64,000 nucleotides of DNA from a virus. Both the position numbers and the translations under genes were made by a program. The first letter of the stretch is position 1. Each line of letters begins with the position of its first letter. Positions 14,992 through 60,544 of this stretch are shown piece after piece. Location: the IMG/VR virus record IMGVR_UViG_3300042520_001372; one strand, 5' to 3'. The notes beneath the pieces were generated by a model. The model ran no database searches. It was not told the DNA's origin and was given only the letters and a program-made list of their open reading frames with translations.

Positions 14992-15185
14992 TATCGATCT
15001 ACTTCAATTTTATGACCTATTTGATAAGGCATTACTGAAATCACTGTGAATGTATCACATATGCGATCTATCTTTTTCATAGCAGTACTATCCTGCCTAG
15101 GTCGAACTTTAACTGCTTTGTAGCTATACATGTCCTGTGAAAGGTCTGCATGAATTAATGCTACTATAATTAAAACTGTTTTCAT
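14991..15185 (-). CDS. Small protein with signal-like N-terminus
   Basis: MKTVLIIVALI; TAATG coupling. Confidence 0.55.
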   Translation of the reverse strand: MKTVLIIVALIHADLSQDMYSYKAVKVRPRQDSTAMKKIDRICDTFTVISVMPYQIGHKIEVDR

Positions 15186-15976
15186 TATACTGCTCGCTTA
15201 GTGTCCCAGCTTATTATGTGATCCCTTCCTGTCCAATTGTAGCCCATGTCGAATGCTTTTTCTAATGAGATTGGATACTGCTTGATCAATTCCTCTCTGT
15301 TATCACCAGCAGGCATCAACCAGGTTTTATTCTTAGGGATGTTGTGCTTTACTCTAAATTCTTCAATCTCATTCATTGTTTCTTCAGTACCGTCATACAC
15401 TGGTTTGTAATGGTAGTCCGAATGGTATGCAAGGGTCTTCTCAATTGCATCATCATTTAAACGTAGCTTATTATGCTGATCGATCATCTTCTGGTCGACC
15501 AGTTTACCCATTGGAGTAGTAACATCAAGCTTAGGCACACTATTACTAAACTTAGGTGATAGGGAAATAAGACCAATTGGATAATCCGTCTCGACAAAAT
15601 GAGAACCTTCTGTTTCAATAGTTATAAATATTCCTCTTTGATTAGCAAAATGCGTTAATTCATTACATAGATCTGGCTGCATGGTAGGTGAACCTCCAGT
15701 CAACATCATTTCAGTAATGGTTGGATTCTCATCATAAATTTTAATGATGTCGTTAAATGTAATATGCCCTTTCTCAGGGTGTATACTGCTATACCAACTA
15801 TCACACCATCCGCCTTCGCCAAACCAACATCTGTGAGTACATCCGGTTGTTCTGATAGCAACGGTAGGTCTTCCCTGCCTTGAACCTTCAGACTGGATGC
15901 AAGTATAAAGTTCGATGATGGGTAATTTTTTGTTGTAATCTAAAATACGACCTGGTTTTTTAATTTCTATTGACAT
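15185..15976 (-). CDS. queE: 7-carboxy-7-deazaguanine synthase (radical SAM)
   Basis: IQSEG...G.P..IRTTGC, Cys cluster CTHRCWFGEGGWCD, LTGGSP, ETEG, SLSPK; near queD/queC. Confidence 0.9.
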   Translation of the reverse strand: MSIEIKKPGRILDYNKKLPIIELYTCIQSEGSRQGRPTVAIRTTGCTHRCWFGEGGWCDSWYSSIHPEKGHITFNDIIKIYDENPTITEMMLTGGSPTMQPDLCNELTHFANQRGIFITIETEGSHFVETDYPIGLISLSPKFSNSVPKLDVTTPMGKLVDQKMIDQHNKLRLNDDAIEKTLAYHSDYHYKPVYDGTEETMNEIEEFRVKHNIPKNKTWLMPAGDNREELIKQYPISLEKAFDMGYNWTGRDHIISWDTKRAV

Positions 15977-16006: not shown

Positions 16007-16546
16007 TTATAGATCCAACTTTTTATTTTGGTTCTTTCTCTTTAATGTTTCTGAGATTTTTTTCTTTTGCTCTTCAGACATTAGCTTACCTAAATTAGTA
16101 CCGACCATGCCTTTTTTAGCTTCTGATATTCTCCTACCTACTTCAACTGGCATTTTTTTACCTTTGTTTGTTCCTCGAGAACCTTCTGCGTAAGCTTTTT
16201 TTAGACTTTCTGAGATTTTCTTTTTATGCTCTTCTGTTTTTTTATTTAAGCTTTCTTTTATTCTCTGGTATGTTTTTGCAGAAACTCTGTACCTACTTTG
16301 GTTGCTTGCTTCCATTGTTGCCATCATCCACAGAGCGTATTTCAGTTTTTGATTTGTTGGGTAAATTTCAGTAAGAAGTAAGTGGGCTAAGAAATGCTCT
16401 TTAGCTGTAAGCTTTACGAGGTTATCTGGATTATTAGTTCCGTGTAAGCATCTAGGTATTATATGATGTGTTTCAAAATACCCACTTATTTCTTCTCTAG
16501 TCTTAGCTTTCAGTACTAATTGATAATAAATTTTTTGATAGTCCAT
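16007..16546 (-). mobile_element. Free-standing HNH homing endonuclease with NUMOD3-like repeats
   Basis: ETHHIIP...G.N...NLV.LT.KEHFLAH; TEEHKKKISE/SEEQKKKISE repeats; TATTTATA at 16551-16558. Confidence 0.9.
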
Positions 16547-22123: not shown

Positions 22124-22204
22124 TTATTGCTTATTTATTTTTCTTAGTTCAAAAACTATTTGCCATAAAGGTAAAGCTATTAGTAGTGCTGCTAACATTA
22201 TCAT
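22124..22204 (-). CDS. Tiny membrane peptide (26 aa; not in ORF track)
   Basis: MIMLAALLIALPLWQIVFELRKINKQ, started by ATGA at the junction repeat. Confidence 0.5.
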   Translation of the reverse strand: MIMLAALLIALPLWQIVFELRKINKQ

Positions 22205-22242
22205 TGCTCACCTCCTCCGTAGGTTTCGTTGTAGTATTGTTC
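22201..22242 (-). repeat. Gene-junction repeat (…ACCTACGGAGGAGGTGAGCAATGA), copy 1
   Basis: Near-identical copies at 22732-22773, 39082-39111, 40085-40128. Confidence 0.85.
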
Positions 22243-22419
22243 TGCCCATGTATCGCCAGGTCCAGGTCCTGCGTACAATAAAGTATTAGCGGCATCAATG
22301 ATTTGTTGTTTCTCCATTTCTTTGGCTTGTTCTTTCCATTCAGAAGGTATTGAATAACCTGCAAAAAGGAATCTGTCATACAACCACTCCACTGCCGTTT
22401 GTTGTTTATTGTTTGTCAT
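22201..22419 (-). CDS. 'MTNNKQQTAVEWL...YYxxTYGGGEQ' cassette-family protein
   Basis: Paralogous ends shared with 22732-22953 and 40085-40411. Confidence 0.75.
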   Translation of the reverse strand: MTNNKQQTAVEWLYDRFLFAGYSIPSEWKEQAKEMEKQQIIDAANTLLYAGPGPGDTWAEQYYNETYGGGEQ

Positions 22420-22735
22420 TGCTCGCTAATTTTGATTGCAAAAATTCAATTAGTTGTTTCAATTCGTCTTGGTTTAAGAATAATGTTTCTATACCTAAAA
22501 ATGCACATTCAATTCCAACATCCCCGTCTGGATAACCTTTTATACTCCATTGGGAAAGTTCTTGTTGAATGTCAATCCTATCCCATTGTGGGTTTTCTTG
22601 GTACTTGATGTATTTAAATCTTTGTTTATTGTTTTCCATTCTTTTATCGTTTAAAAATTTGTTTAGTGTTTCAGTTGTTTCATTGCTTAATGCTTCATCA
22701 AGTTTGTTTTCAAGTTTGTTTAAGTCAAGGCTCAT
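22406..22735 (-). CDS. Hypothetical protein, apparent fusion containing internal MENNKQ cassette start
   Basis: ...NDKR-MENNKQ... internal copy of the family leader. Confidence 0.6.
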   Translation of the reverse strand: MSLDLNKLENKLDEALSNETTETLNKFLNDKRMENNKQRFKYIKYQENPQWDRIDIQQELSQWSIKGYPDGDVGIECAFLGIETLFLNQDELKQLIEFLQSKLASNDKQ

Positions 22736-22953
22736 TGCTCACCTCCTCCGTAGGTTTGTTGGTAGTATTGTTCGCCCGAAACACATTGTAAATTGTTCAC
22801 TCCTTTCATTTTGATTCCGTGAGCCCATATAATTTCACTCTTATGCATTGCCATATGCTCCTCTAATATAGCATACCAAATGAATTTATCCTTTGGTGTA
22901 TCCCATAACTTGTGGAATAACTGTTCTATTGATGTTTGTTTATTGTTGCTCAT
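22732..22953 (-). CDS. Cassette-family protein (MSNNKQ...GEQYYQQTYGGGEQ)
   Basis: Shared N- and C-terminal motifs. Confidence 0.75.
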   Translation of the reverse strand: MSNNKQTSIEQLFHKLWDTPKDKFIWYAILEEHMAMHKSEIIWAHGIKMKGVNNLQCVSGEQYYQQTYGGGEQ

Positions 22954-38266: not shown

Positions 38267-38995
38267 TTAATCTTTATAAATCCACCTATACCCTGCAGAT
38301 TTAAATACTTTTTCTCCTGCTTGATTCTTATGGCAACAATTACGAACTGCAGATGGTGAAAATCCAAACTCCCCAGTTTCTTTTAAACTCTTGAACTCCT
38401 TAATAATTTCTCCGGTACTGTCATTTAACTGTAAAACAGCCCTCCATTTTTTTGGATTTTCTACTCCTTTTTTTGCTTCTGATATAGCTTTTTTTTCATC
38501 AGCAGTCCTAGGTATTCCTTTATTCCAAGAAGCAATTCCTCTTTTTGCTTCTGAAATTCGCTGCTTAGTTTCCTCAGTATGTGAAATACCTGTTCGTGTC
38601 GCTTTACCCCTTCTCCGTTCTGAGATTTGCTTTTTGTGTTTTTCGGTCAAAGTTTTTCCTTTATGTGTTTTTGAATTAGCTTCTTTGAATCCTAATCGGG
38701 CTTCTTCATATACTCTGGAGCTAGGTGTGTACCTACTTTGTTTGGGGTTATGCTGAGTGCACATCTTCCAGAAAGCGTAAGCCCGTGATTGACTATTCGG
38801 TTTATCTCTATATAACAACCAATGCGCTATAAAATGTTCTCTAGCTGTTAATAATACCAAATTTTCTTTTGTATTAGAACCGCCTTCACTCTTAGGTACT
38901 ATATGGTGCTTTTCGTAGTAAGTTTCTTTTGTTTTTGTTCTGTTTTCTTGCTGTGCTTTTTGCACCAGTAAATTGTAATGTTTGTAATATTCCAT
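38267..38995 (-). mobile_element. Free-standing HNH homing endonuclease with NUMOD3- and NUMOD1-like domains
   Basis: EKHHIVPKSEGG.N..ENLVLLTAREHF.AH; HTEETKQRISE; F.SL.E...AGYRW; TATTTATA at 39000-39007. Confidence 0.9.
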
Positions 38996-39084
38996 TTATT
39001 ATAAATAGTCTTAACATCAACATTCTACTATATACTGCAAATAAAAAGTTTTTTAGAAAATTAAACTTATTTTAGTATTTGTCA

Positions 39085-39420
39085 TTACTCACCTCCTCCG
39101 TAGGTTTGTTCAATTAATTTTTTAAGACAAGCAAGTTCTGCTTCTTCGTAGGTTTCAAATCCAAATCCTTTCGTCCAATTTATTTGGTAGTAGTAAAACG
39201 AAAACTCTTTGTCGGTGTCTTTTTTAAATCCAATATAAGAATCTACATAGTGCTTCTCTCTAAACCATCTAAATGCCATAGCGTTACACACTGTTCTATG
39301 AATATCATCTGGGGGTAGTTCATCAAGATACTCAGGTTTCATGTCAGTGTCGGCTAGATTGTGTGTCTCAGCTAACCACTCAAAAAAGTTTAAGTCTTCT
39401 AATTCTGTGTATAGTTTCAT
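39085..39420 (-). CDS. Cassette-family hypothetical (AFRWFRE...YEEAELACLKKLIE-QTYGGGE)
   Basis: Shares blocks with 40616-41050 and the junction repeat. Confidence 0.7.
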   Translation of the reverse strand: MKLYTELEDLNFFEWLAETHNLADTDMKPEYLDELPPDDIHRTVCNAMAFRWFREKHYVDSYIGFKKDTDKEFSFYYYQINWTKGFGFETYEEAELACLKKLIEQTYGGGE

Positions 39421-39438
39421 TTGTTACCTCCGTATGTT
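39418..39438 (-). repeat. Non-coding junction repeat AACATACGGAGGTAACAAATG
   Basis: 21-nt exact copy at 39842-39862. Confidence 0.85.
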
Positions 39439-39654
39439 TTATTTACAAAACTTTTCTAATTTTTGAAGATTAATTATTCCTAATTCTTCACATGCAGACA
39501 TAGATAATTTTACTTCATCTACATTGAAACCTTTTTCAATAATAAAAGTTGCAATGTGTGAACGATTATCAATATGTATAGCAGTTACACGATGGGTAGC
39601 GTCTTTTAGGTCTTTATTGAACCATGTAAGTCCCCAAACTATTACTTTACTCAT
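39439..39654 (-). CDS. Hypothetical protein
   Basis: 71 aa, preceded by partial junction (GGTAACAAATGA). Confidence 0.6.
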   Translation of the reverse strand: MSKVIVWGLTWFNKDLKDATHRVTAIHIDNRSHIATFIIEKGFNVDEVKLSMSACEELGIINLQKLEKFCK

Positions 39655-39844
39655 TTGTTACCTTCTTTTTACAATCTTGGTTTCTTCCAAAAACTTCATC
39701 GATGGTATTATCACTATATCCATCAAGTTTTAATGCTAATTCAAGTGCTTCTCTAATAGCATAAGGATAATTACAAGACTTTGTGTCAATTGTTACAATT
39801 GCAGTTTGTCTTTCTTCGTTAGTTCTGTTAATAGTTATTATCAT
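39647..39844 (-). CDS. Hypothetical protein
   Basis: 65 aa, preceded by junction repeat. Confidence 0.6.
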   Translation of the reverse strand: MIITINRTNEERQTAIVTIDTKSCNYPYAIREALELALKLDGYSDNTIDEVFGRNQDCKKKVTNE

Positions 39845-39860
39845 TTGTTACCTCCGTATG

Positions 39861-40088
39861 TTAAATTACTAAATTTACTTGGGCTATTCCTGAATCGTTT
39901 GAAATGAATATTTTAATACCCATAAATGTTTCAACTTTTACAATACCTTCATAGTCTTTAATGACAGACCTTATCATGAAGTCTTTTGTTGATTCATTCA
40001 TTAAAATACCAATCGGCTTTTTATTATTTTGTGATTCGTATTTCTCTATTTTAAATACAATATCAGCCATTAATTCATCATATGTCAT
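39861..40088 (-). CDS. Hypothetical protein
   Basis: 75 aa, preceded by junction repeat. Confidence 0.6.
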   Translation of the reverse strand: MTYDELMADIVFKIEKYESQNNKKPIGILMNESTKDFMIRSVIKDYEGIVKVETFMGIKIFISNDSGIAQVNLVI

Positions 40089-40411
40089 TTGTTACCTCCT
40101 CCGTAGGTTTGTTCGTAGTATTGTTCACCAGTTAGTGGTAGCGTACTTTCAGGATAATCAATTCCATGAACTGTTCCTTTGTTGTATGCAGTTTCAATTC
40201 TTTGCTTCTCCATTTCTTTGGCTTGTTCAAGTAATTCAATATACTGAATCTCAAATTCTTTAAGTGATATTTCCTCATTGTTTAATTTTGTAAGTAAATC
40301 CACATAAGATTTTGCTAACCACTCTACTGCTAACTTATTGTTTGTCCTATTTTCTGTGTTTGTGTAAACCTGAATTATGTTTTTAAGTTTATTTATTTTA
40401 TTGTTTGTCAT
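40085..40411 (-). CDS. Cassette-family protein (MTNNK...AVEWL...EQAKEMEKQ...GEQYYEQTYGGGNK)
   Basis: Paralog of 22201-22419. Confidence 0.75.
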   Translation of the reverse strand: MTNNKINKLKNIIQVYTNTENRTNNKLAVEWLAKSYVDLLTKLNNEEISLKEFEIQYIELLEQAKEMEKQRIETAYNKGTVHGIDYPESTLPLTGEQYYEQTYGGGNK

Positions 40412-40629
40412 TTGTTACCTCCTTCGTAGGTTAATTCAATTACCTTAAACTCAAGTATTCCAATATTGTTATTGCTATTTACAAAATGTTCAATTTCACC
40501 CAATGTTGTATTCTCGTTACATAACATTGATGGATTTATAACCTTCCAATCATCTGGGCTAATTTGAATACTTGTCTTAAAAGTTGCTACAAATTGTTTC
40601 ACTGCCGTTTGTTGTTTATTGTTTTCCAT
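40408..40629 (-). CDS. Cassette-family protein (MENNKQQTAV...TYEGGNK)
   Basis: Family termini around an unrelated core. Confidence 0.7.
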   Translation of the reverse strand: MENNKQQTAVKQFVATFKTSIQISPDDWKVINPSMLCNENTTLGEIEHFVNSNNNIGILEFKVIELTYEGGNK

Positions 40630-41050
40630 TTACTATTTCAATTAATTTTTTAAGACAAGCAAGTTCTGCTTCTTCGTATGGTTGATATTTCATCTCCCAT
40701 TGTTTAGGGTCTGTATTATAATGACCAATAACAGAAATATCCCACCAGGTAGTTTTATTAATTAGTCCTCCAATATAATTGATTTGACATCTAAGATTGT
40801 GGTTCTCTCTAAACCATCTAAATGCTTGTGAGAATGTTGGTGCTCCGAACCATTTTAACCTATCATGTTTTTGAAAAGGTATATAATCTCCTGATGCATC
40901 TCTTATATTGTTAAAGTAAAATGATTCAGCATTTTTTCCATCATAAAAAGCTAAACAAGGTTCATCAAATCCAAGTTGCTTTAACTCTAAAGCAAGTTCG
41001 TAGGGTACAAATTCTTTGTTCATCTCCGTTTGTTGTTTATTGTTTGTCAT
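40616..41050 (-). CDS. Cassette-family protein (MTNNKQQT...FVPYELALELKQLGFDEPC...APTFSQAFRWFRE)
   Basis: Family leader; first gene after promoter at 41055-41085. Confidence 0.75.
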   Translation of the reverse strand: MTNNKQQTEMNKEFVPYELALELKQLGFDEPCLAFYDGKNAESFYFNNIRDASGDYIPFQKHDRLKWFGAPTFSQAFRWFRENHNLRCQINYIGGLINKTTWWDISVIGHYNTDPKQWEMKYQPYEEAELACLKKLIEIVNGKQ

Positions 41051-41054
41051 AACC

Positions 41055-42126: not shown

Positions 42127-42153
42127 AAAAAAGCCCTTGACTTGCAAGGGCTC
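42127..42153 (-). terminator. GAGCCCTTG-family terminator
   Basis: Minus: GAGCCCTTGcaagtCAAGGGC followed by T-run. Confidence 0.8.
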
Positions 42154-42175
42154 TTAAATGTTTATTTTTTGTTAA

Positions 42176-42889
42176 TTATCTACCGCTACTGGCTCCAATA
42201 CCTGTATCACTGTAGGTATCCCTAGCTGCTTTTTCATCTGCTAGTTGCATAGCTTCTTCGCTAGAATATTGTTTGCCGTTGTAGCTTAGCATTGGATGTA
42301 GGCCGTAATGTGCTGCATCTTCTAATGCTGCAAGAACAGCCATCCAATCATATTTTGTTAAATCTAACTCTGCAGATAATATATCGTTTGCTGAATCGTC
42401 CATTACAACTGTGTACCCTAGTTTTTCATAGTTTAAGTGATCTTGGGACTCTTCACCTTCGGGGAAATCAAATAATACTTTGCTTTCAGCAGCTTCGTTC
42501 ATCATTTTAGAACTAGAAGTTTTTTGGTAAATAATATACTCATATTGATCGCTGAATAGCACTGCTAATTTTGCACCAGGATATCCTTCTCCTGCTTCAA
42601 AGTCGTACATAACAGCCTCCCCTTCGTCACTATCCTCTTCAAAAGAAGCTTTTTCTTTTTCTAACATCTGTAATAAAGCTTTAGGGTCCATTTCCTTACG
42701 CTCTTCCATAGACCCTCCAGGTCCGCCACCAGCTTCAACTACTTCAACCGGTTTGTTCATGTCAATACCTGCTTGTGCAAAAGCTTCTGCTAAGTCTTGA
42801 GTCTCTTTTTCAAAGTACTCGTTTATCATTCTAGAATTAGTAGTTACCTTATTCTCTACTAAATACTTTTTTAAGTCAAAATTATCCAT
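42176..42889 (-). CDS. MDNFDLKKYLVE-leader acidic protein (putative internal head protein)
   Basis: Shared leader; own TATTTATA and terminator. Confidence 0.7.
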   Translation of the reverse strand: MDNFDLKKYLVENKVTTNSRMINEYFEKETQDLAEAFAQAGIDMNKPVEVVEAGGGPGGSMEERKEMDPKALLQMLEKEKASFEEDSDEGEAVMYDFEAGEGYPGAKLAVLFSDQYEYIIYQKTSSSKMMNEAAESKVLFDFPEGEESQDHLNYEKLGYTVVMDDSANDILSAELDLTKYDWMAVLAALEDAAHYGLHPMLSYNGKQYSSEEAMQLADEKAARDTYSDTGIGASSGR

Positions 42890-42968
42890 GTTTTGTTTTA
42901 GTTATAAATATAATCTAAAGATAAGAAAAAAGCCCCTGCAAAGCAAGGGCTCTTAAGTGTTTATTTTT
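42840..42968 (-). repeat. Cassette junction unit: terminator + promoters + leader-coding DNA
   Basis: Near-identical to ~43473-43601 and related to ~43825-43940. Confidence 0.9.
42926..42952 (-). terminator. GAGCCCTTG-family terminator overlapping TTG-N20-TATCTTTA promoter
   Basis: Minus: GAGCCCTTGCtttGCAGGGGC-TTTTTT-ctTATCTTTAgattaTATTTATA. Confidence 0.85.
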
Positions 42969-42976
42969 ACTATACT

Positions 42977-43522
42977 CTAGTAAGCATAACCAGCAGGAAC
43001 GATGTCGTTCTCGGTTGATTCATTACCTTCTAAGTCATACCAGTAGGTATAAGCTTCTTCTCCATACTCTGCATTGTTCCAATCGTACTCTTGTCCAGAT
43101 ACACCGTAACCTTTAGGGTACTTGTATATAAAGATAACAATACCTCCCTCCATATCCTCTTCACCTACTTTAAAAGTAGTGCCGTTAGGAAATTCGACTT
43201 TACGAACTTTTTGTGGTTTTTTTTTAAGCTCTCCTTCTTTCTTTTCAGCTTCAGAAACAGTTTCATCAATTGATAGAGTTGATATTGTGTAAACTAAAAA
43301 ATCATTGATTTGTTTTTCAGAATAACCTTTCTCTAGTAAATCAAAAGCAACTGCATCAGCACCCTTCACAAACATGTGAAATTTCTCGCTAGAAGCTTCT
43401 TTCTCCATTTTTTCAATGGCATCATAATCAAAACCCGTATTGCTCGAGTATTCATTTGTTATCTGTGAGTTAGTAGTTACTTTATTTTCTACTAAGTACT
43501 TCTTTAAATCAAAATTATCCAT
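42977..43522 (-). CDS. MDNFDLKKYLVE-leader acidic protein
   Basis: Shared leader, unrelated body. Confidence 0.7.
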   Translation of the reverse strand: MDNFDLKKYLVENKVTTNSQITNEYSSNTGFDYDAIEKMEKEASSEKFHMFVKGADAVAFDLLEKGYSEKQINDFLVYTISTLSIDETVSEAEKKEGELKKKPQKVRKVEFPNGTTFKVGEEDMEGGIVIFIYKYPKGYGVSGQEYDWNNAEYGEEAYTYWYDLEGNESTENDIVPAGYAY

Positions 43523-43558
43523 GTTTTGTTTTAGTTATAAATATAATCTAAAGATAAG

Positions 43559-43585
43559 AAAAAAGCCCCTGCAAGGCAAGGGCTC
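43559..43585 (-). terminator. GAGCCCTTG-family terminator/promoter
   Basis: Minus: GAGCCCTTGCcttGCAGGGGC-TTTTTT. Confidence 0.85.
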
Positions 43586-43610
43586 TTCTGTGTTTATTTT
43601 TTAGTTTTAT

Positions 43611-43874
43611 TTACAGTAAGTCACCGCTTTTTTCTAATTCCCTAAAGTAGTCCTTAATGCCTGTATAATTAGTAGATACATTCTTCCATTCTTGAGCGTA
43701 CTCCGCTACTTTCTTAGCTAATTCTCTAGGTGATAGATCTTCGTACTGTGGATGGGACATTACAAAGTCTTCAATAGCACTGTGAGAATTTTCGTTTTCT
43801 GCTTCTTCTATCATTCTAGAGTTTGCAGTAACCTTATTCTCAACAAGGTACTTTTTTAAATCAAAATTATCCAT
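43611..43874 (-). CDS. MDNFDLKKYLVE-leader protein
   Basis: Shared leader, unrelated body. Confidence 0.7.
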   Translation of the reverse strand: MDNFDLKKYLVENKVTANSRMIEEAENENSHSAIEDFVMSHPQYEDLSPRELAKKVAEYAQEWKNVSTNYTGIKDYFRELEKSGDLL

Positions 43875-43909
43875 TTTTTTCTTTTGTTATAAATAGACTT
43901 AAAGAAACG

Positions 43910-43936
43910 AAAAAAGCCCCTGCAAAGCAAGGGCTC
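43910..43936 (-). terminator. GAGCCCTTG-family terminator after recA
   Basis: Minus: GAGCCCTTGCtttGCAGGGGC-TTTTTT. Confidence 0.85.
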
Positions 43937-43957
43937 TTCTTAAAAGTTTTTGGAATC

Positions 43958-45037
43958 TTATTCCGGCTCTTCTTGGAAATAACCGGGTGTTGAATCCTCA
44001 TAAGCTTCTTCTACTACATCGAAGTCTCCTCCTCCTAGAATGGCTGACCATTCTTTGGCATGAGCATCTTTGTACTTCTTAAGCTCTTTCTCATCATCGT
44101 TGATAAATCCGTGAGGTGTCATAATGATCCTGCCTCGGGTTGTAATTCCATTGATATGATTCTTATCAATCTGAAGATTAGTTCTCTTAGCAAATTCTAC
44201 CTGTTTACCATCCTTGATTGCTTTAATCTTGGAAGTACCTGCATTCATAATGTTACCAAACGTTACTACAAAAGTTGCATCATACCACATGGCAAATCCA
44301 CCTTTGTTCATAAGCTTGGGTTGACCCATTGGTGATTCAGGCTTTTGAGTCCATACCTTGTTTACTACTACTAATGTATTAGTATACGGTGAAGACTCTT
44401 TCCTTGACATTACAATCCGTTGATTTACTCCATTACCGAACTGAGTTGACATTGCACCTGCATTCCATTCGTTATTATTCTTGTTAGAACGTACTGAAAG
44501 TTCGCAAGGTACTGAACCGATTGAATCCCAAAGGAATAAAAGATCGTGAGGTAAGCTTCCTTTCTTCTGTTCGTCAATTAAATCTAGAATAAATCCAGCA
44601 ACATCCTCGATTGTATTTAGAGTCTCTCTATCAACGTAGATAAAGAATCCACCGTAATCAACAACCTCACCGGTTCGTTCATCAACCGTTTGATTTACTT
44701 GCAGACCCATTTGAATAGCATGTTCCCAATTCCATTTCATCTCTGTAATAATGAATACTGGAAGGATGCCTGCTTTCTGGGCTGATACTGCAGCTTCAAG
44801 CAATGCTGTAGTCTTTCCTGTATCAGAATGACCTCTCAGCATTACAATGTGACCCATCGGGATTCCCGGGATTGAAGTCACCTCTTGGAAAGATGGTGAT
44901 AGAGGAATCCACTGCTGATCCTTAAATTTTACGTTACCTGTTAAGAGCTTCTTCTCTTTGAACTTATCTAAAGAGAATCCTTTCTTAAGCTCGGCAGACA
45001 CGGCCTCTGTTAAAGAAGCTTTTTCTTTCTTAGCCAT
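43958..45037 (-). CDS. RecA/UvsX-like recombinase
   Basis: GIPMG..V.LRGHSDTGKTT, LWDSIG, KGG..MWY. Confidence 0.9.
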   Translation of the reverse strand: MAKKEKASLTEAVSAELKKGFSLDKFKEKKLLTGNVKFKDQQWIPLSPSFQEVTSIPGIPMGHIVMLRGHSDTGKTTALLEAAVSAQKAGILPVFIITEMKWNWEHAIQMGLQVNQTVDERTGEVVDYGGFFIYVDRETLNTIEDVAGFILDLIDEQKKGSLPHDLLFLWDSIGSVPCELSVRSNKNNNEWNAGAMSTQFGNGVNQRIVMSRKESSPYTNTLVVVNKVWTQKPESPMGQPKLMNKGGFAMWYDATFVVTFGNIMNAGTSKIKAIKDGKQVEFAKRTNLQIDKNHINGITTRGRIIMTPHGFINDDEKELKKYKDAHAKEWSAILGGGDFDVVEEAYEDSTPGYFQEEPE

Positions 45038-45043
45038 AGTCTA

Positions 45044-45907
45044 TTAGAAAGGTAAGTCGTTGGTGTCGTCGTTGAATAAAGAATCGAACTTGTCGGCTTT
45101 TGATTCTACTTTCTTTCCTTGAGATTCTAGAGTAAATGGATTCTCAGATTTTTTCCAAGGAAGTTCTTCCTTTGCAGGAGCAGCAGGCTTTGCATCATCA
45201 AAGTTAGTTACAGGCTCAGAAGAGATTACTCCTTCTTCTTCGTCAGGTGCTAACCATTTCTGCAATACAGACTTCATGTCATCGAAAGACATTCTTGAGA
45301 ATACTTTCAAAGGATCTGGTTGATCGTTCAAGATAGTTTGTAACAATGTGTCGTCATCGGTCAAAGTAGATTCTTTAGTACGTGCACGAACGGTTGTTTT
45401 GTTAAAACCAGTTCCTGTAGTTTCAGCACCCACTGTAGTCAAATTCAAGTCACGACCTGAAATGATATCAGTGTAATCCCCGATGTCTTCATCTTCTACC
45501 ATAGAAAGTAATTCCATGTAGATTTCTTTACCAAAGCCCCAAAGTTTAACTCCGTCTGCTTCTTCACCTCTAACGATAACGGGTACAAATACCCTCATTT
45601 TAGGATCAAGTTTACGTGCTAGTCTCCAAGACTCTTTGTCTTTACTGGTTCTTAACTGCTTGGCGAATTCAACGATAGGATCTTTATCACCCCAGTTTGT
45701 TGGAGAGATGATTGGATTCTTGTCGATTCCGTAGTGAAAATACAGTTCCGAAAAAGGATTTGATTTATTGTACGCGGAAGGTACAATACGGATTGTTTGC
45801 TTGCCCACGGCAGGTTTCCAGAAGACATTCTTACGTGCCTCTCCGGAAGGACGGCTTTGTTGAGTTTGCAAAGCATTCAGCTTTGCTTTAATTGAATTGA
45901 TATCCAT
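45044..45907 (-). CDS. Single-stranded DNA-binding protein (T4 gp32-like)
   Basis: FWKP..G...IRI.P, LWGFGK, D...GRDL, acidic tail ending DLPF. Confidence 0.88.
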   Translation of the reverse strand: MDINSIKAKLNALQTQQSRPSGEARKNVFWKPAVGKQTIRIVPSAYNKSNPFSELYFHYGIDKNPIISPTNWGDKDPIVEFAKQLRTSKDKESWRLARKLDPKMRVFVPVIVRGEEADGVKLWGFGKEIYMELLSMVEDEDIGDYTDIISGRDLNLTTVGAETTGTGFNKTTVRARTKESTLTDDDTLLQTILNDQPDPLKVFSRMSFDDMKSVLQKWLAPDEEEGVISSEPVTNFDDAKPAAPAKEELPWKKSENPFTLESQGKKVESKADKFDSLFNDDTNDLPF

Positions 45908-45917
45908 AAGTTTTATT

Positions 45918-45950
45918 TAAATGTATGAAAATTGCTTTAGACTAGCAACT
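45918..45950 (-). promoter_or_regulatory. Promoter TTG-N20-TACATTTA overlapping weak hairpin (TTGCT...AGCAA-TTTT)
   Basis: Between the fourth leader gene and SSB. Confidence 0.55.
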
Positions 45951-45980
45951 TAAAGTTTAATAATTTTACAGAGTTTGCTT

Positions 45981-46310
45981 TTACTCAGGTAGACCGTTGG
46001 GTTCTCCTAAGATTCCGTGAATAACTCTTCGGAATGTCTTTTGAAATTCTTTTTGCAGAGTTGCCATAACCTCTTCCTGTTGTTCCGGATTATCTTTTAA
46101 GATTTGCATTTTACCGTTAGAACCATCATGATACATTGCGCTCATTTTAAAGAACACCATGGGAGAATTCCCTTCCCCATCATCCACAATTTGCATTTTA
46201 ATAGTAGGTATATCATCAAACTCATTATCGTCCTGTAGTTTATTAAACTCAACAGACTCTTGATGTAACCTATTTTCAACAAGGTACTTTTTTAAGTCGA
46301 AATTATCCAT
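45981..46310 (-). CDS. MDNFDLKKYLVE-leader protein
   Basis: Shared leader; TATTTATT variant immediately upstream. Confidence 0.7.
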   Translation of the reverse strand: MDNFDLKKYLVENRLHQESVEFNKLQDDNEFDDIPTIKMQIVDDGEGNSPMVFFKMSAMYHDGSNGKMQILKDNPEQQEEVMATLQKEFQKTFRRVIHGILGEPNGLPE

Positions 46311-46321
46311 GTTAATAAATA

Positions 46322-54308: not shown

Positions 54309-54718
54309 TACTTAGGTAAGTTATCTAAATATGGATATTTTCCGGGTATTGTTGGTTTATTACCGTCAAAGTCTAATTGTGATTTAGCTAGACCGGCTAC
54401 GTAGTTTGTCTGCTGGTTATAACCTGTAGGAGTTTTTCCGTCTAGATCTAATTGTGATTTTGCTAAACCGGCAGGGTAGTCGGTGAGTTGATCATAAGCT
54501 ACAGGATCTTTACCATCTAAATCTAATTGAGACTTAGCTAGACCTTCCGGGTATTTAGTTAACTGATCGTAAGACACTGGTGTTAATCCATCTAAATCTA
54601 ACTGTGACTTAGCTAAATCCTGCGGATAGTTACTAACACCACTGTATGATGCAGGGGTTTTACCGTCCAAAGTAGTTAAATCAGAGCCTTGAGTCTGTAA
54701 TTTTATTAATAGTCCCAT
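54308..54718 (-). CDS. Late protein made of 25-aa tandem repeats
   Basis: Four LAKSQLD(L/F)DG units at 25-aa spacing plus a degenerate fifth. Confidence 0.75.
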   Translation of the reverse strand: MGLLIKLQTQGSDLTTLDGKTPASYSGVSNYPQDLAKSQLDLDGLTPVSYDQLTKYPEGLAKSQLDLDGKDPVAYDQLTDYPAGLAKSQLDLDGKTPTGYNQQTNYVAGLAKSQLDFDGNKPTIPGKYPYLDNLPK

Positions 54719-57074: not shown

Positions 57075-57109
57075 CGTTTATATGTTATAAATATTTGAGA
57101 CTCCAAGTT

Positions 57110-58722: not shown

Positions 58723-58754
58723 GTTGTTTTATGTTTATCAGTTATAAATAGTTA

Positions 58755-60488: not shown

Positions 60489-60544
60489 TATATTTTAGTT
60501 TGTTAGATAGTTCTAATATAAATAGTAATTAGACCTTCAAAAAG

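Follow-up and report, generated by a model that had tools for sequence, protein, structure and literature searches.

The targeting of the internal proteins of phage T4 to the head and their processing have been described (PMC9026906, PMC3012670, PMC5694885). The T4 protease gp21 cleaves Leu/Ile-x-Glu motifs behind the Glu (PMC9026906, PMC5694885), and in the giant phages phiKZ, 201phi2-1, and SPN3US, the propeptides of ejection proteins are cut after Glu by a T4-related protease (PMC5694885). In the T4 genome (NC_000866), we read a common 10-residue propeptide ending in I-A-E on IPII and IPIII, and a 19-residue propeptide on IPI, in which a short head with an aromatic residue leads into a spacer rich in Thr and Ser and then I-T-E, with Ala as the next residue. 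The T4 scaffold N-terminus ends in I-A-E-A, like the propeptide of IPII and IPIII. T4 IPI* acts on the host defence GmrSD. In this study, we analyzed a stretch of viral DNA of 64,000 nucleotides (nt) (IMG/VR record IMGVR_UViG_3300042520_001372), hereafter the window, in which four minus-strand genes start with the same 13 residues and continue into unrelated bodies. We propose that this shared N-terminus, the leader, is probably a capsid-targeting propeptide that a protease removes from exchangeable head cargo. Read as its reverse complement, the window corresponds to bases 2379-66378 of a complete genome of 166,276 bp with terminal repeats, and coordinates preceded by G000:C1 refer to the whole genome of the same phage.

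Gene 1 (42176-42889) encoded 237 amino acids (aa), gene 2 (42977-43522) 181 aa, gene 3 (43611-43874) 87 aa, and gene 4 (45981-46310) 109 aa. The leader comprised residues 1-24 in genes 1, 2, and 3 (42818-42889, 43451-43522, and 43803-43874, respectively), and only residues 1-13 were kept in gene 4 (46272-46310). The identical 13-residue start had been reported in the initial annotation, and it was confirmed by degenerate back-translation. The pattern of the first 12 codons had exactly four matches in the window, all at the starts of these open reading frames (ORFs), and shuffled sequence gave none. No fifth copy was found in the 166,276-bp genome by six-frame scan and profile search. L-V-E was located at residues 10-12 in all four genes. 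The K-V-T-x-N-S continuation described for three copies was also present, and the shared part reached residue 24. These three copies arrived at hydrophobic-x-Glu at residues 22-24, which was canonical in two of them; one read I-T-N-E, which is less canonical. The complete divergence of the bodies held as well, since BLASTP found no similarity among the four. None of the four proteins had a Pfam or PHROG match above threshold, and the body of gene 2 had only weak matches in the ESM Atlas, to small viral hypothetical proteins. The genes were located among replication genes, as had been noted, between those for the 5'-3' exonuclease, recombinase, SSB, and family-A polymerase.

The phage was T4-like, with protease, scaffold, capsid, portal, and terminase genes in T4 order. 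Its nearest deposited relatives were the Flavobacterium phages vB_FspM_immuto, 160-kb myoviruses with a DNA identity of about 72% over the recombinase and SSB genes. Phage immuto, whose host is Flavobacterium sp. LMO8, was the nearest cultured relative and had four or five leader-type genes. Gene 4 lay between the SSB gene and a conserved 151-aa gene, and immuto carried a different leader gene, of 171 aa, at this position.

To define the leader, IMG/VR was scanned with a degenerate pattern for residues 1-13, which gave 82 loci and 106 ORFs. Among the 81 unique leader ORFs, residues 14-24 were also conserved, though the pattern constrained only residues 1-13. The conserved columns were Lys14, Thr16, Asn18, Ser19, a basic residue or Gln at 20, aliphatic residues at 21-22, and Glu24. 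Most of the 81 relatives had a canonical second site at residues 22-24. Column information fell to background from residue 25, directly past Glu24, and Ala was the most frequent residue at position 25, as at T4 sites. A profile built from the first 32 residues was then searched against 1.84 billion cluster representatives, and it matched 1351 protein clusters (50% identity) at E<=0.001, of which 146 were at E<=1e-10. The 105 IMG/VR bodies fell into 51 BLASTP clusters. When 239 bodies were clustered by single linkage, 68 clusters were obtained with one giant component, because modules are shuffled among the bodies. A literature search with the exact leader sequence found no paper, and no paper on a capsid-targeting sequence (CTS) in Flavobacterium phages turned up.

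The head genes of the phage were consistent with processing of the T4 kind. The prohead protease gene belonged to Peptidase_S77, the T4 gp21 type (PF03420, E 4.9e-32; phrog_207, E 1e-58), and alignment with T4 gp21 showed that the catalytic His and Ser motifs were retained; an L-I-E site was found close to the N-terminus of the protease. The gp23-type major capsid protein (PF07068, E 5.6e-74) had an N-terminal extension terminating in V-I-E. Between the protease and capsid genes was the scaffold gene (G000:C1:136545-137492), assigned by position and composition, without a PHROG family match; it encoded an acidic protein of 315 aa (isoelectric point, pI, 4.4) with many hydrophobic-x-Glu sites. 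The prohead protease was present in 5 of the 5 complete relatives tested.

In distant relatives, with capsid proteins 57-59% identical, leader genes were found near head genes. A leader gene was located directly between the protease and scaffold genes in four of them (L012, L042, L064, and G003, the last at 157296), and others were found elsewhere in the head cluster (L066) and in a slot in the late region. In immuto and G002, leader genes were located just before the large terminase gene. Immuto (G005, C1:117631-118931) had two adjacent leader genes there, of 333 aa and 99 aa, and in G002 (C1:36342-37934) this pair was a single 530-aa ORF with a complete internal leader. A further candidate of this kind in immuto, of 75 aa, followed the protease gene. 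The contents of the slots changed rapidly. In the slot between the recombinase and exonuclease genes, phages with 94-99% identical recombinases had different leader genes (94, 117, 120, 137, 148, 189, 196, 300, and 322 aa), and the phage studied here had those of 87, 181, and 237 aa.

A second type of leader was found, which pointed to the scaffold. This type-2 leader contained R-M-Q-K-L-A-G-I-I followed by Thr-Glu, and these nine residues were identical to a motif conserved at the C-terminus of scaffolds in related phages. It headed homologues, 75-85% identical, of the C-terminal module of gene 1. Type-1 leaders, those of the four genes, and type-2 leaders co-occurred in the same contigs, and both terminated in hydrophobic-x-Glu. 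In one contig (L091:4618-7226; IMG/VR 3300046007_014813), five tandem type-2 leader genes with different bodies occupied the late-region slot that held type-1 genes in other phages. In the genome analyzed here, a relaxed type-2 motif occurred in two real ORFs only. The last residues of the scaffold carried R-M-x-K-L-A-G-L, and a 272-aa acidic late gene outside the window (G000:C1:99543-100361) had R-M-x-K-L-A-G-L at its N-terminus, followed by M-T-E. Scaffold C-termini bind the coat protein in other phages, as established for P22. Therefore, such a motif with a protease site on the cargo is the design expected for loading and release. The type-2 leader is the strongest indirect support for the proposed head-targeting role of the whole system.

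The type-1 leader showed a weak likeness to the other end of the scaffold. Met1, Asn3, Asp/Glu5, Leu6, and Lys8 were in common with the conserved scaffold N-terminus, so that the first 8 residues loosely resembled it; the scaffold ranked 5 among 217 N-termini (z about 2.5). A profile-profile comparison of the leader with the scaffold alignment by hhalign detected nothing, and complex prediction for the scaffold with a 32-residue leader gave a score of 0.00, which, obtained without controls, was no evidence either way. These likenesses also bear on an alternative, in which the leader proteins would be accessory components of the prohead core or scaffold, like T4 gp67 and gp68, which enter via the leader, are degraded or expelled at maturation, and serve assembly without entering the host. 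The acidity of the bodies, similar to that of the scaffold, the resemblance to its N-terminus, and the leader gene between protease and scaffold genes in relatives would all fit such a role. However, scaffold-type proteins are conserved within a lineage, whereas the bodies here differed beside neighbours 94-99% identical and belonged to dozens of unrelated families. In addition, the two bodies that were modelled were compact rather than extended acidic coils, and the profile comparison had linked leader and scaffold in no way. We consider this explanation unlikely.

The region upstream of each gene was then related to gene class. The TATTTAT[AT] motif noted in the initial annotation was present 3-13 nt ahead of the ATG in all four genes. 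It was TATTTATA on the minus strand at 42903-42910 for gene 1 (13 nt from the ATG), 43536-43543 for gene 2, and 43888-43895 for gene 3, and TATTTATT at 46314-46321 for gene 4 (3 nt from the ATG). In the whole genome, TATTTATA had 45 copies on the gene strand against 6 on the opposite one. At a distance of 3-36 nt, it preceded the start codons of the genes for the tail sheath, tail tube, baseplate hub, head-tail adaptor, and portal, of two genes in the head cluster, of giant fibre-like genes, and of two genes for HNH endonucleases, as well as those of all four leader genes. It was not found ahead of the surrounding exonuclease, recombinase, SSB, and polymerase genes. This distribution suggested that TATTTATA might be a late-class promoter or start signal. 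Two genes with a match to sigma-70 region 2 in a Sigma70_r2 search (G000:C1:87367-87903 and C1:102207-102941), one of which also matched a PHROG sigma-factor family, are candidates for the factor that would read it. At least one sigma-factor gene is therefore present, although T4 gp55, used as a single query sequence, retrieved no late sigma homologue from this phage.

Further occurrences of TATTTATA in the window were at 60517-60524, 58743-58750, and 57086-57093. It was located upstream of an HNH/homing endonuclease-family gene (38267-38995, minus strand) and of a gene at 16007-16546 (minus strand) that had an HNH-like N-terminus by eye and no NCBIfam match. In T4, many genes for homing endonucleases follow late promoters. 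A 136-aa late gene bearing TATTTATA contained three tandem 75-nt repeats, 65-72% identical (54350-54574).

The position of the four genes among replication genes in this phage is what would favor another explanation, that the leader is a tag for a different partner, such as a modifying radical-SAM enzyme of the kind that acts on ribosomally synthesized and post-translationally modified peptides (RiPPs), a replication protein, or a degradation or localisation factor. The neighbourhoods argued otherwise. No enzyme gene recurred beside the leader genes in 80 loci, and their constant companions in relatives were head genes. TATTTATA, common to leader and virion genes, was not found at the neighbouring replication genes, and the protease motif terminated both types of leader. 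The sole radical-SAM gene was QueE-like, 27 kb away, and without a SPASM-type match. A partner of this sort is therefore quite improbable, and a recognition tag for a radical-SAM/SPASM maturase was rejected, because no linked maturase gene was found and the QueE-like gene was unlinked. This QueE-like gene lies at 15185-15976 on the minus strand. The immuto phages are reportedly named in a paper on 7-deazaguanine DNA modifications. Taken with the QueE-like gene, this means that the phage studied here may modify its guanines.

The leader was part of a longer repeated unit in three of the four genes. A 155-nt junction (repeat family D1, minus strand) with a GC hairpin and T-run, TATTTATA, 13 nt, the ATG, and the leader was located at 42814-42968 for gene 1, and its other copies were at 43447-43601 (89% identical) and 43799-43953 (65%). 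Since genes 1-3 have about 65 nt of upstream DNA in common, comprising the terminator hairpin and TATTTATA, the repeated unit is the whole cassette junction and not the coding leader alone. A terminator-like GC hairpin with a T-run was present 3' of gene 1 (42129-42155, minus strand; families D1 and D2), and its sisters at 42928-42954, 43559-43589, and 43910-43940 bracketed genes 1-3, with one after the recombinase gene and one after each of the three. This meant that each of these genes is its own insulated transcription unit. A second kind of repeated junction (families D5-D7) was observed at 39067-41051 and 22201-22776, in small minus-strand genes with a conserved stop/start overlap. Their C-termini are Gly-Gly-(Gly)-Asn-Lys from a GGAGG-containing stretch, and the next gene starts with M-T-N-N-K-Q-Q-T.

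In the case of gene 4, none of the shared upstream DNA was present, yet the same 13 residues were encoded. Between pairs of window copies, 3-6 of the 39 bases of leader DNA differed, and all differences were synonymous. In the 76 distinct leader DNAs of other phages, Ser19 was encoded by both TCN and AGT, and Leu10 by five codons. These results indicated that the constraint lies on the peptide, not on the DNA. Between this phage and immuto, the leader was better conserved than the polymerase (34%), exonuclease (42%), and SSB (45%). T4-type phages shuffle genes at conserved promoter/stem-loop cassettes, and recombination at the junctions probably moves the cassettes here too, which leaves the constraint on the peptide unexplained. 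The explanation that the leader is a functionless by-product of a mobile DNA cassette spread by homologous recombination, for which the common 155-nt junction with its non-coding DNA and the near-identical hairpins around each gene would speak, fails on the synonymous-only differences, with serine kept across both codon families, and on the fourth copy without the common upstream DNA, and we regard it as very improbable, the more so as the peptide was kept in phages with core proteins just 34-68% identical and was also found within proteins, at sites that call for no promoter.

The second half of the leader was also reused as a joint between modules. It occurred 39 times inside the bodies of 248 leader proteins, compared to 0.7 times in shuffles. 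Modules were swapped at these joints, and some long proteins held a complete second leader. Gene 1 was a fusion of this kind, and its C-terminal module stands alone behind a canonical leader in other phages. Its two alpha/beta modules, at about residues 31-122 and 135-224 of the AlphaFold2 model, were separated by a low-confidence linker, into which the internal joint fell (residues 124-132, 42494-42520, minus strand), a relic of the leader second half ending in M-N-E. The body of gene 2 consisted of a helical module, a linker ending in V-S-E, and a beta-rich module (residues 100-175). In its family, one beta-rich module was found behind four N-terminal modules, and each junction was a copy or relic of the second leader part. 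A 649-aa multi-leader protein had the body of gene 3 as its first module.

AlphaFold2 predicted compact globular alpha/beta or beta domains for genes 1 and 2, with predicted local distance difference test (pLDDT) values of 80-90, and the leader and joints were low-confidence exposed segments between well-predicted domains. When the whole models of genes 1 and 2 were searched with Foldseek against the PDB and with VIA-align wide, the best Z was 6.0-6.6, for generic ferredoxin-like or helical arrangements, and no known DNA-mimic or anti-restriction fold emerged from these searches. The initial annotation had suggested that the acidic bodies might be DNA mimics. The bodies were indeed acidic, with pI 4.2-4.7 for the four genes and a median of 4.8 over 75 bodies (12% above pI 8). 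However, the proteome is acidic as a whole (median pI 5.5), and because 36-40% of the ORFs of the phage have a pI below 5, acidity was rejected as an argument for DNA mimicry. With the two models compact and without an informative structural match, the suggestion found no support. Variation of the bodies by gene capture, also suggested, stood in part: modules are shuffled among phage proteins, and a cellular homologue was not found for any body.

The following mechanism is proposed for the leader. It would be a bipartite head-loading propeptide, in which part 1 (residues 1-12, ending in L-V-E) acts as an address that binds a component of the prohead core or shell, and part 2 (residues 13-24), whose polar Thr/Asn/Ser spacer leads up to hydrophobic-x-Glu, presents the cleavage site for the gp21-type protease. 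The insulated, putatively late cassettes of terminator, TATTTATA, and leader would cause the proteins to be made alongside the head proteins. The leader would bring the protein into the prohead, the firing of the protease would free the body, and the variable body would stay inside the head as cargo. The initial annotation had advanced a T4-style capsid-targeting leader cut at hydrophobic-x-Glu, and this agreed with every test run; we infer the binding of the leader, its cleavage, the packaging of the bodies, and their ejection with the DNA. The reading is supported by the gp21-type protease, the gp23-type capsid protein, the scaffold, the boundary at Glu, and the motif shared with virion genes. 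It is supported further by the head-cluster positions in relatives, the fast turnover in the slots, and the scaffold-mimicking type-2 leader.

Several points weighed against head loading. The leader had no significant sequence similarity to the T4 CTS. Gene 4 lacked the second part of the leader and diverged past residue 13, and the second site of gene 2 had Thr at P3 in place of an aliphatic residue. In this phage, the leader genes sit in the replication module and not in the head module. The bodies of the four genes were acidic, whereas T4 IPI-III are basic (pI 8.9-9.5); acidic proteins fit packed DNA less obviously, and they could be expelled like scaffold fragments. In addition, the late-promoter reading of TATTTATA was drawn from which genes carry it, and in many genes the element was only 3-5 nt from the ATG. 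If it were a -10-like element at this distance, leaderless or nearly leaderless late mRNAs would be implied.

With respect to the function of the bodies, the precedent of T4 and the rapid turnover suggested that they might be co-injected and act against host defences, an idea that we hold as possible and somewhat short of an even chance. A broader proposal is more doubtful. In T4-like Flavobacterium phages, cargo might be loaded by mimicry of the scaffold, with one leader type copied from its C-terminal motif and the other perhaps from its N-terminus, and with a protease site after each. Any protein or chain of joined modules could then be plugged in, cut free, and injected, and the more than 1300 clusters would be a reservoir of injected counter-defence proteins in phages of Bacteroidota.

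If the leader is a head-loading propeptide, one short profile would identify, from sequence alone, the proteins carried into the cell with the DNA by a large set of phages of aquatic Bacteroidota. Such injected proteins would meet the host defences first, and the T4 examples include a nuclease inhibitor. Because nearly all bodies have no known family, the tag would give a ready list of candidates. The link between the type-2 leader and the scaffold C-terminus suggests a testable rule for addressing cargo to a T4-type prohead; in T4 itself, to our knowledge, the partner of the targeting sequence has still not been defined. The tag might also be usable as a packaging handle when these phages are engineered in laboratory strains.

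The system was compared with four described ones. Phage P1 packages its Dar anti-restriction proteins into the capsid by means of N-terminal signals and delivers them with the DNA. P1 is different in that it is not T4-like and loads by an ordered dependency among the Dar proteins, and we know of no shared short cleavable tag there. In the T4-type promoter/stem-loop cassettes and the polymorphic IP loci of T-even phages, small genes that can be exchanged lie between conserved regulatory junctions in hyperplastic regions. Here, in contrast, the conserved junction extended into the coding region, and the encoded peptide was under strong selection. The giant phages are alike in that proteins inside the head are processed at a short motif, behind its Glu, with paralogues that have identical N-termini on diverged bodies and with several cleavage sites per propeptide (PMC5694885). 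However, their propeptides are mostly longer than 100 residues and belong to conserved paralogue families, unlike a short tag on hundreds of unrelated bodies.

The likeness was closest for T4 IPI, IPII, IPIII, and Alt, whose CTS the gp21 prohead protease removes (PMC9026906, PMC3012670). As in T4, proteins that are otherwise unrelated start with a short peptide, here a putative propeptide, that ends in hydrophobic-x-Glu, and the genome also encodes a gp21-type protease, a capsid protein of the gp23 type, and a scaffold like gp22. The genes concerned form small separate transcription units dispersed away from the head cluster, as they do in T4, and in both cases closely related phages differ in their sets of bodies. 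In its layout, the leader came close to the 19-residue IPI propeptide. In contrast, the leader here was longer (24 residues) and clearly bipartite, the bodies were mostly acidic and those of T4 basic, and the family was far larger (1351 clusters), with the second half of the leader reused as a joint and a type-2 leader in the same phages. The principle was thus known already from T4 and was anticipated in the literature (PMC9026906). What is new here is a leader in two parts, which is reused as a joint in polyproteins, together with acidic putative cargo, the scale of the family, and the second leader, which appears to mimic the scaffold.

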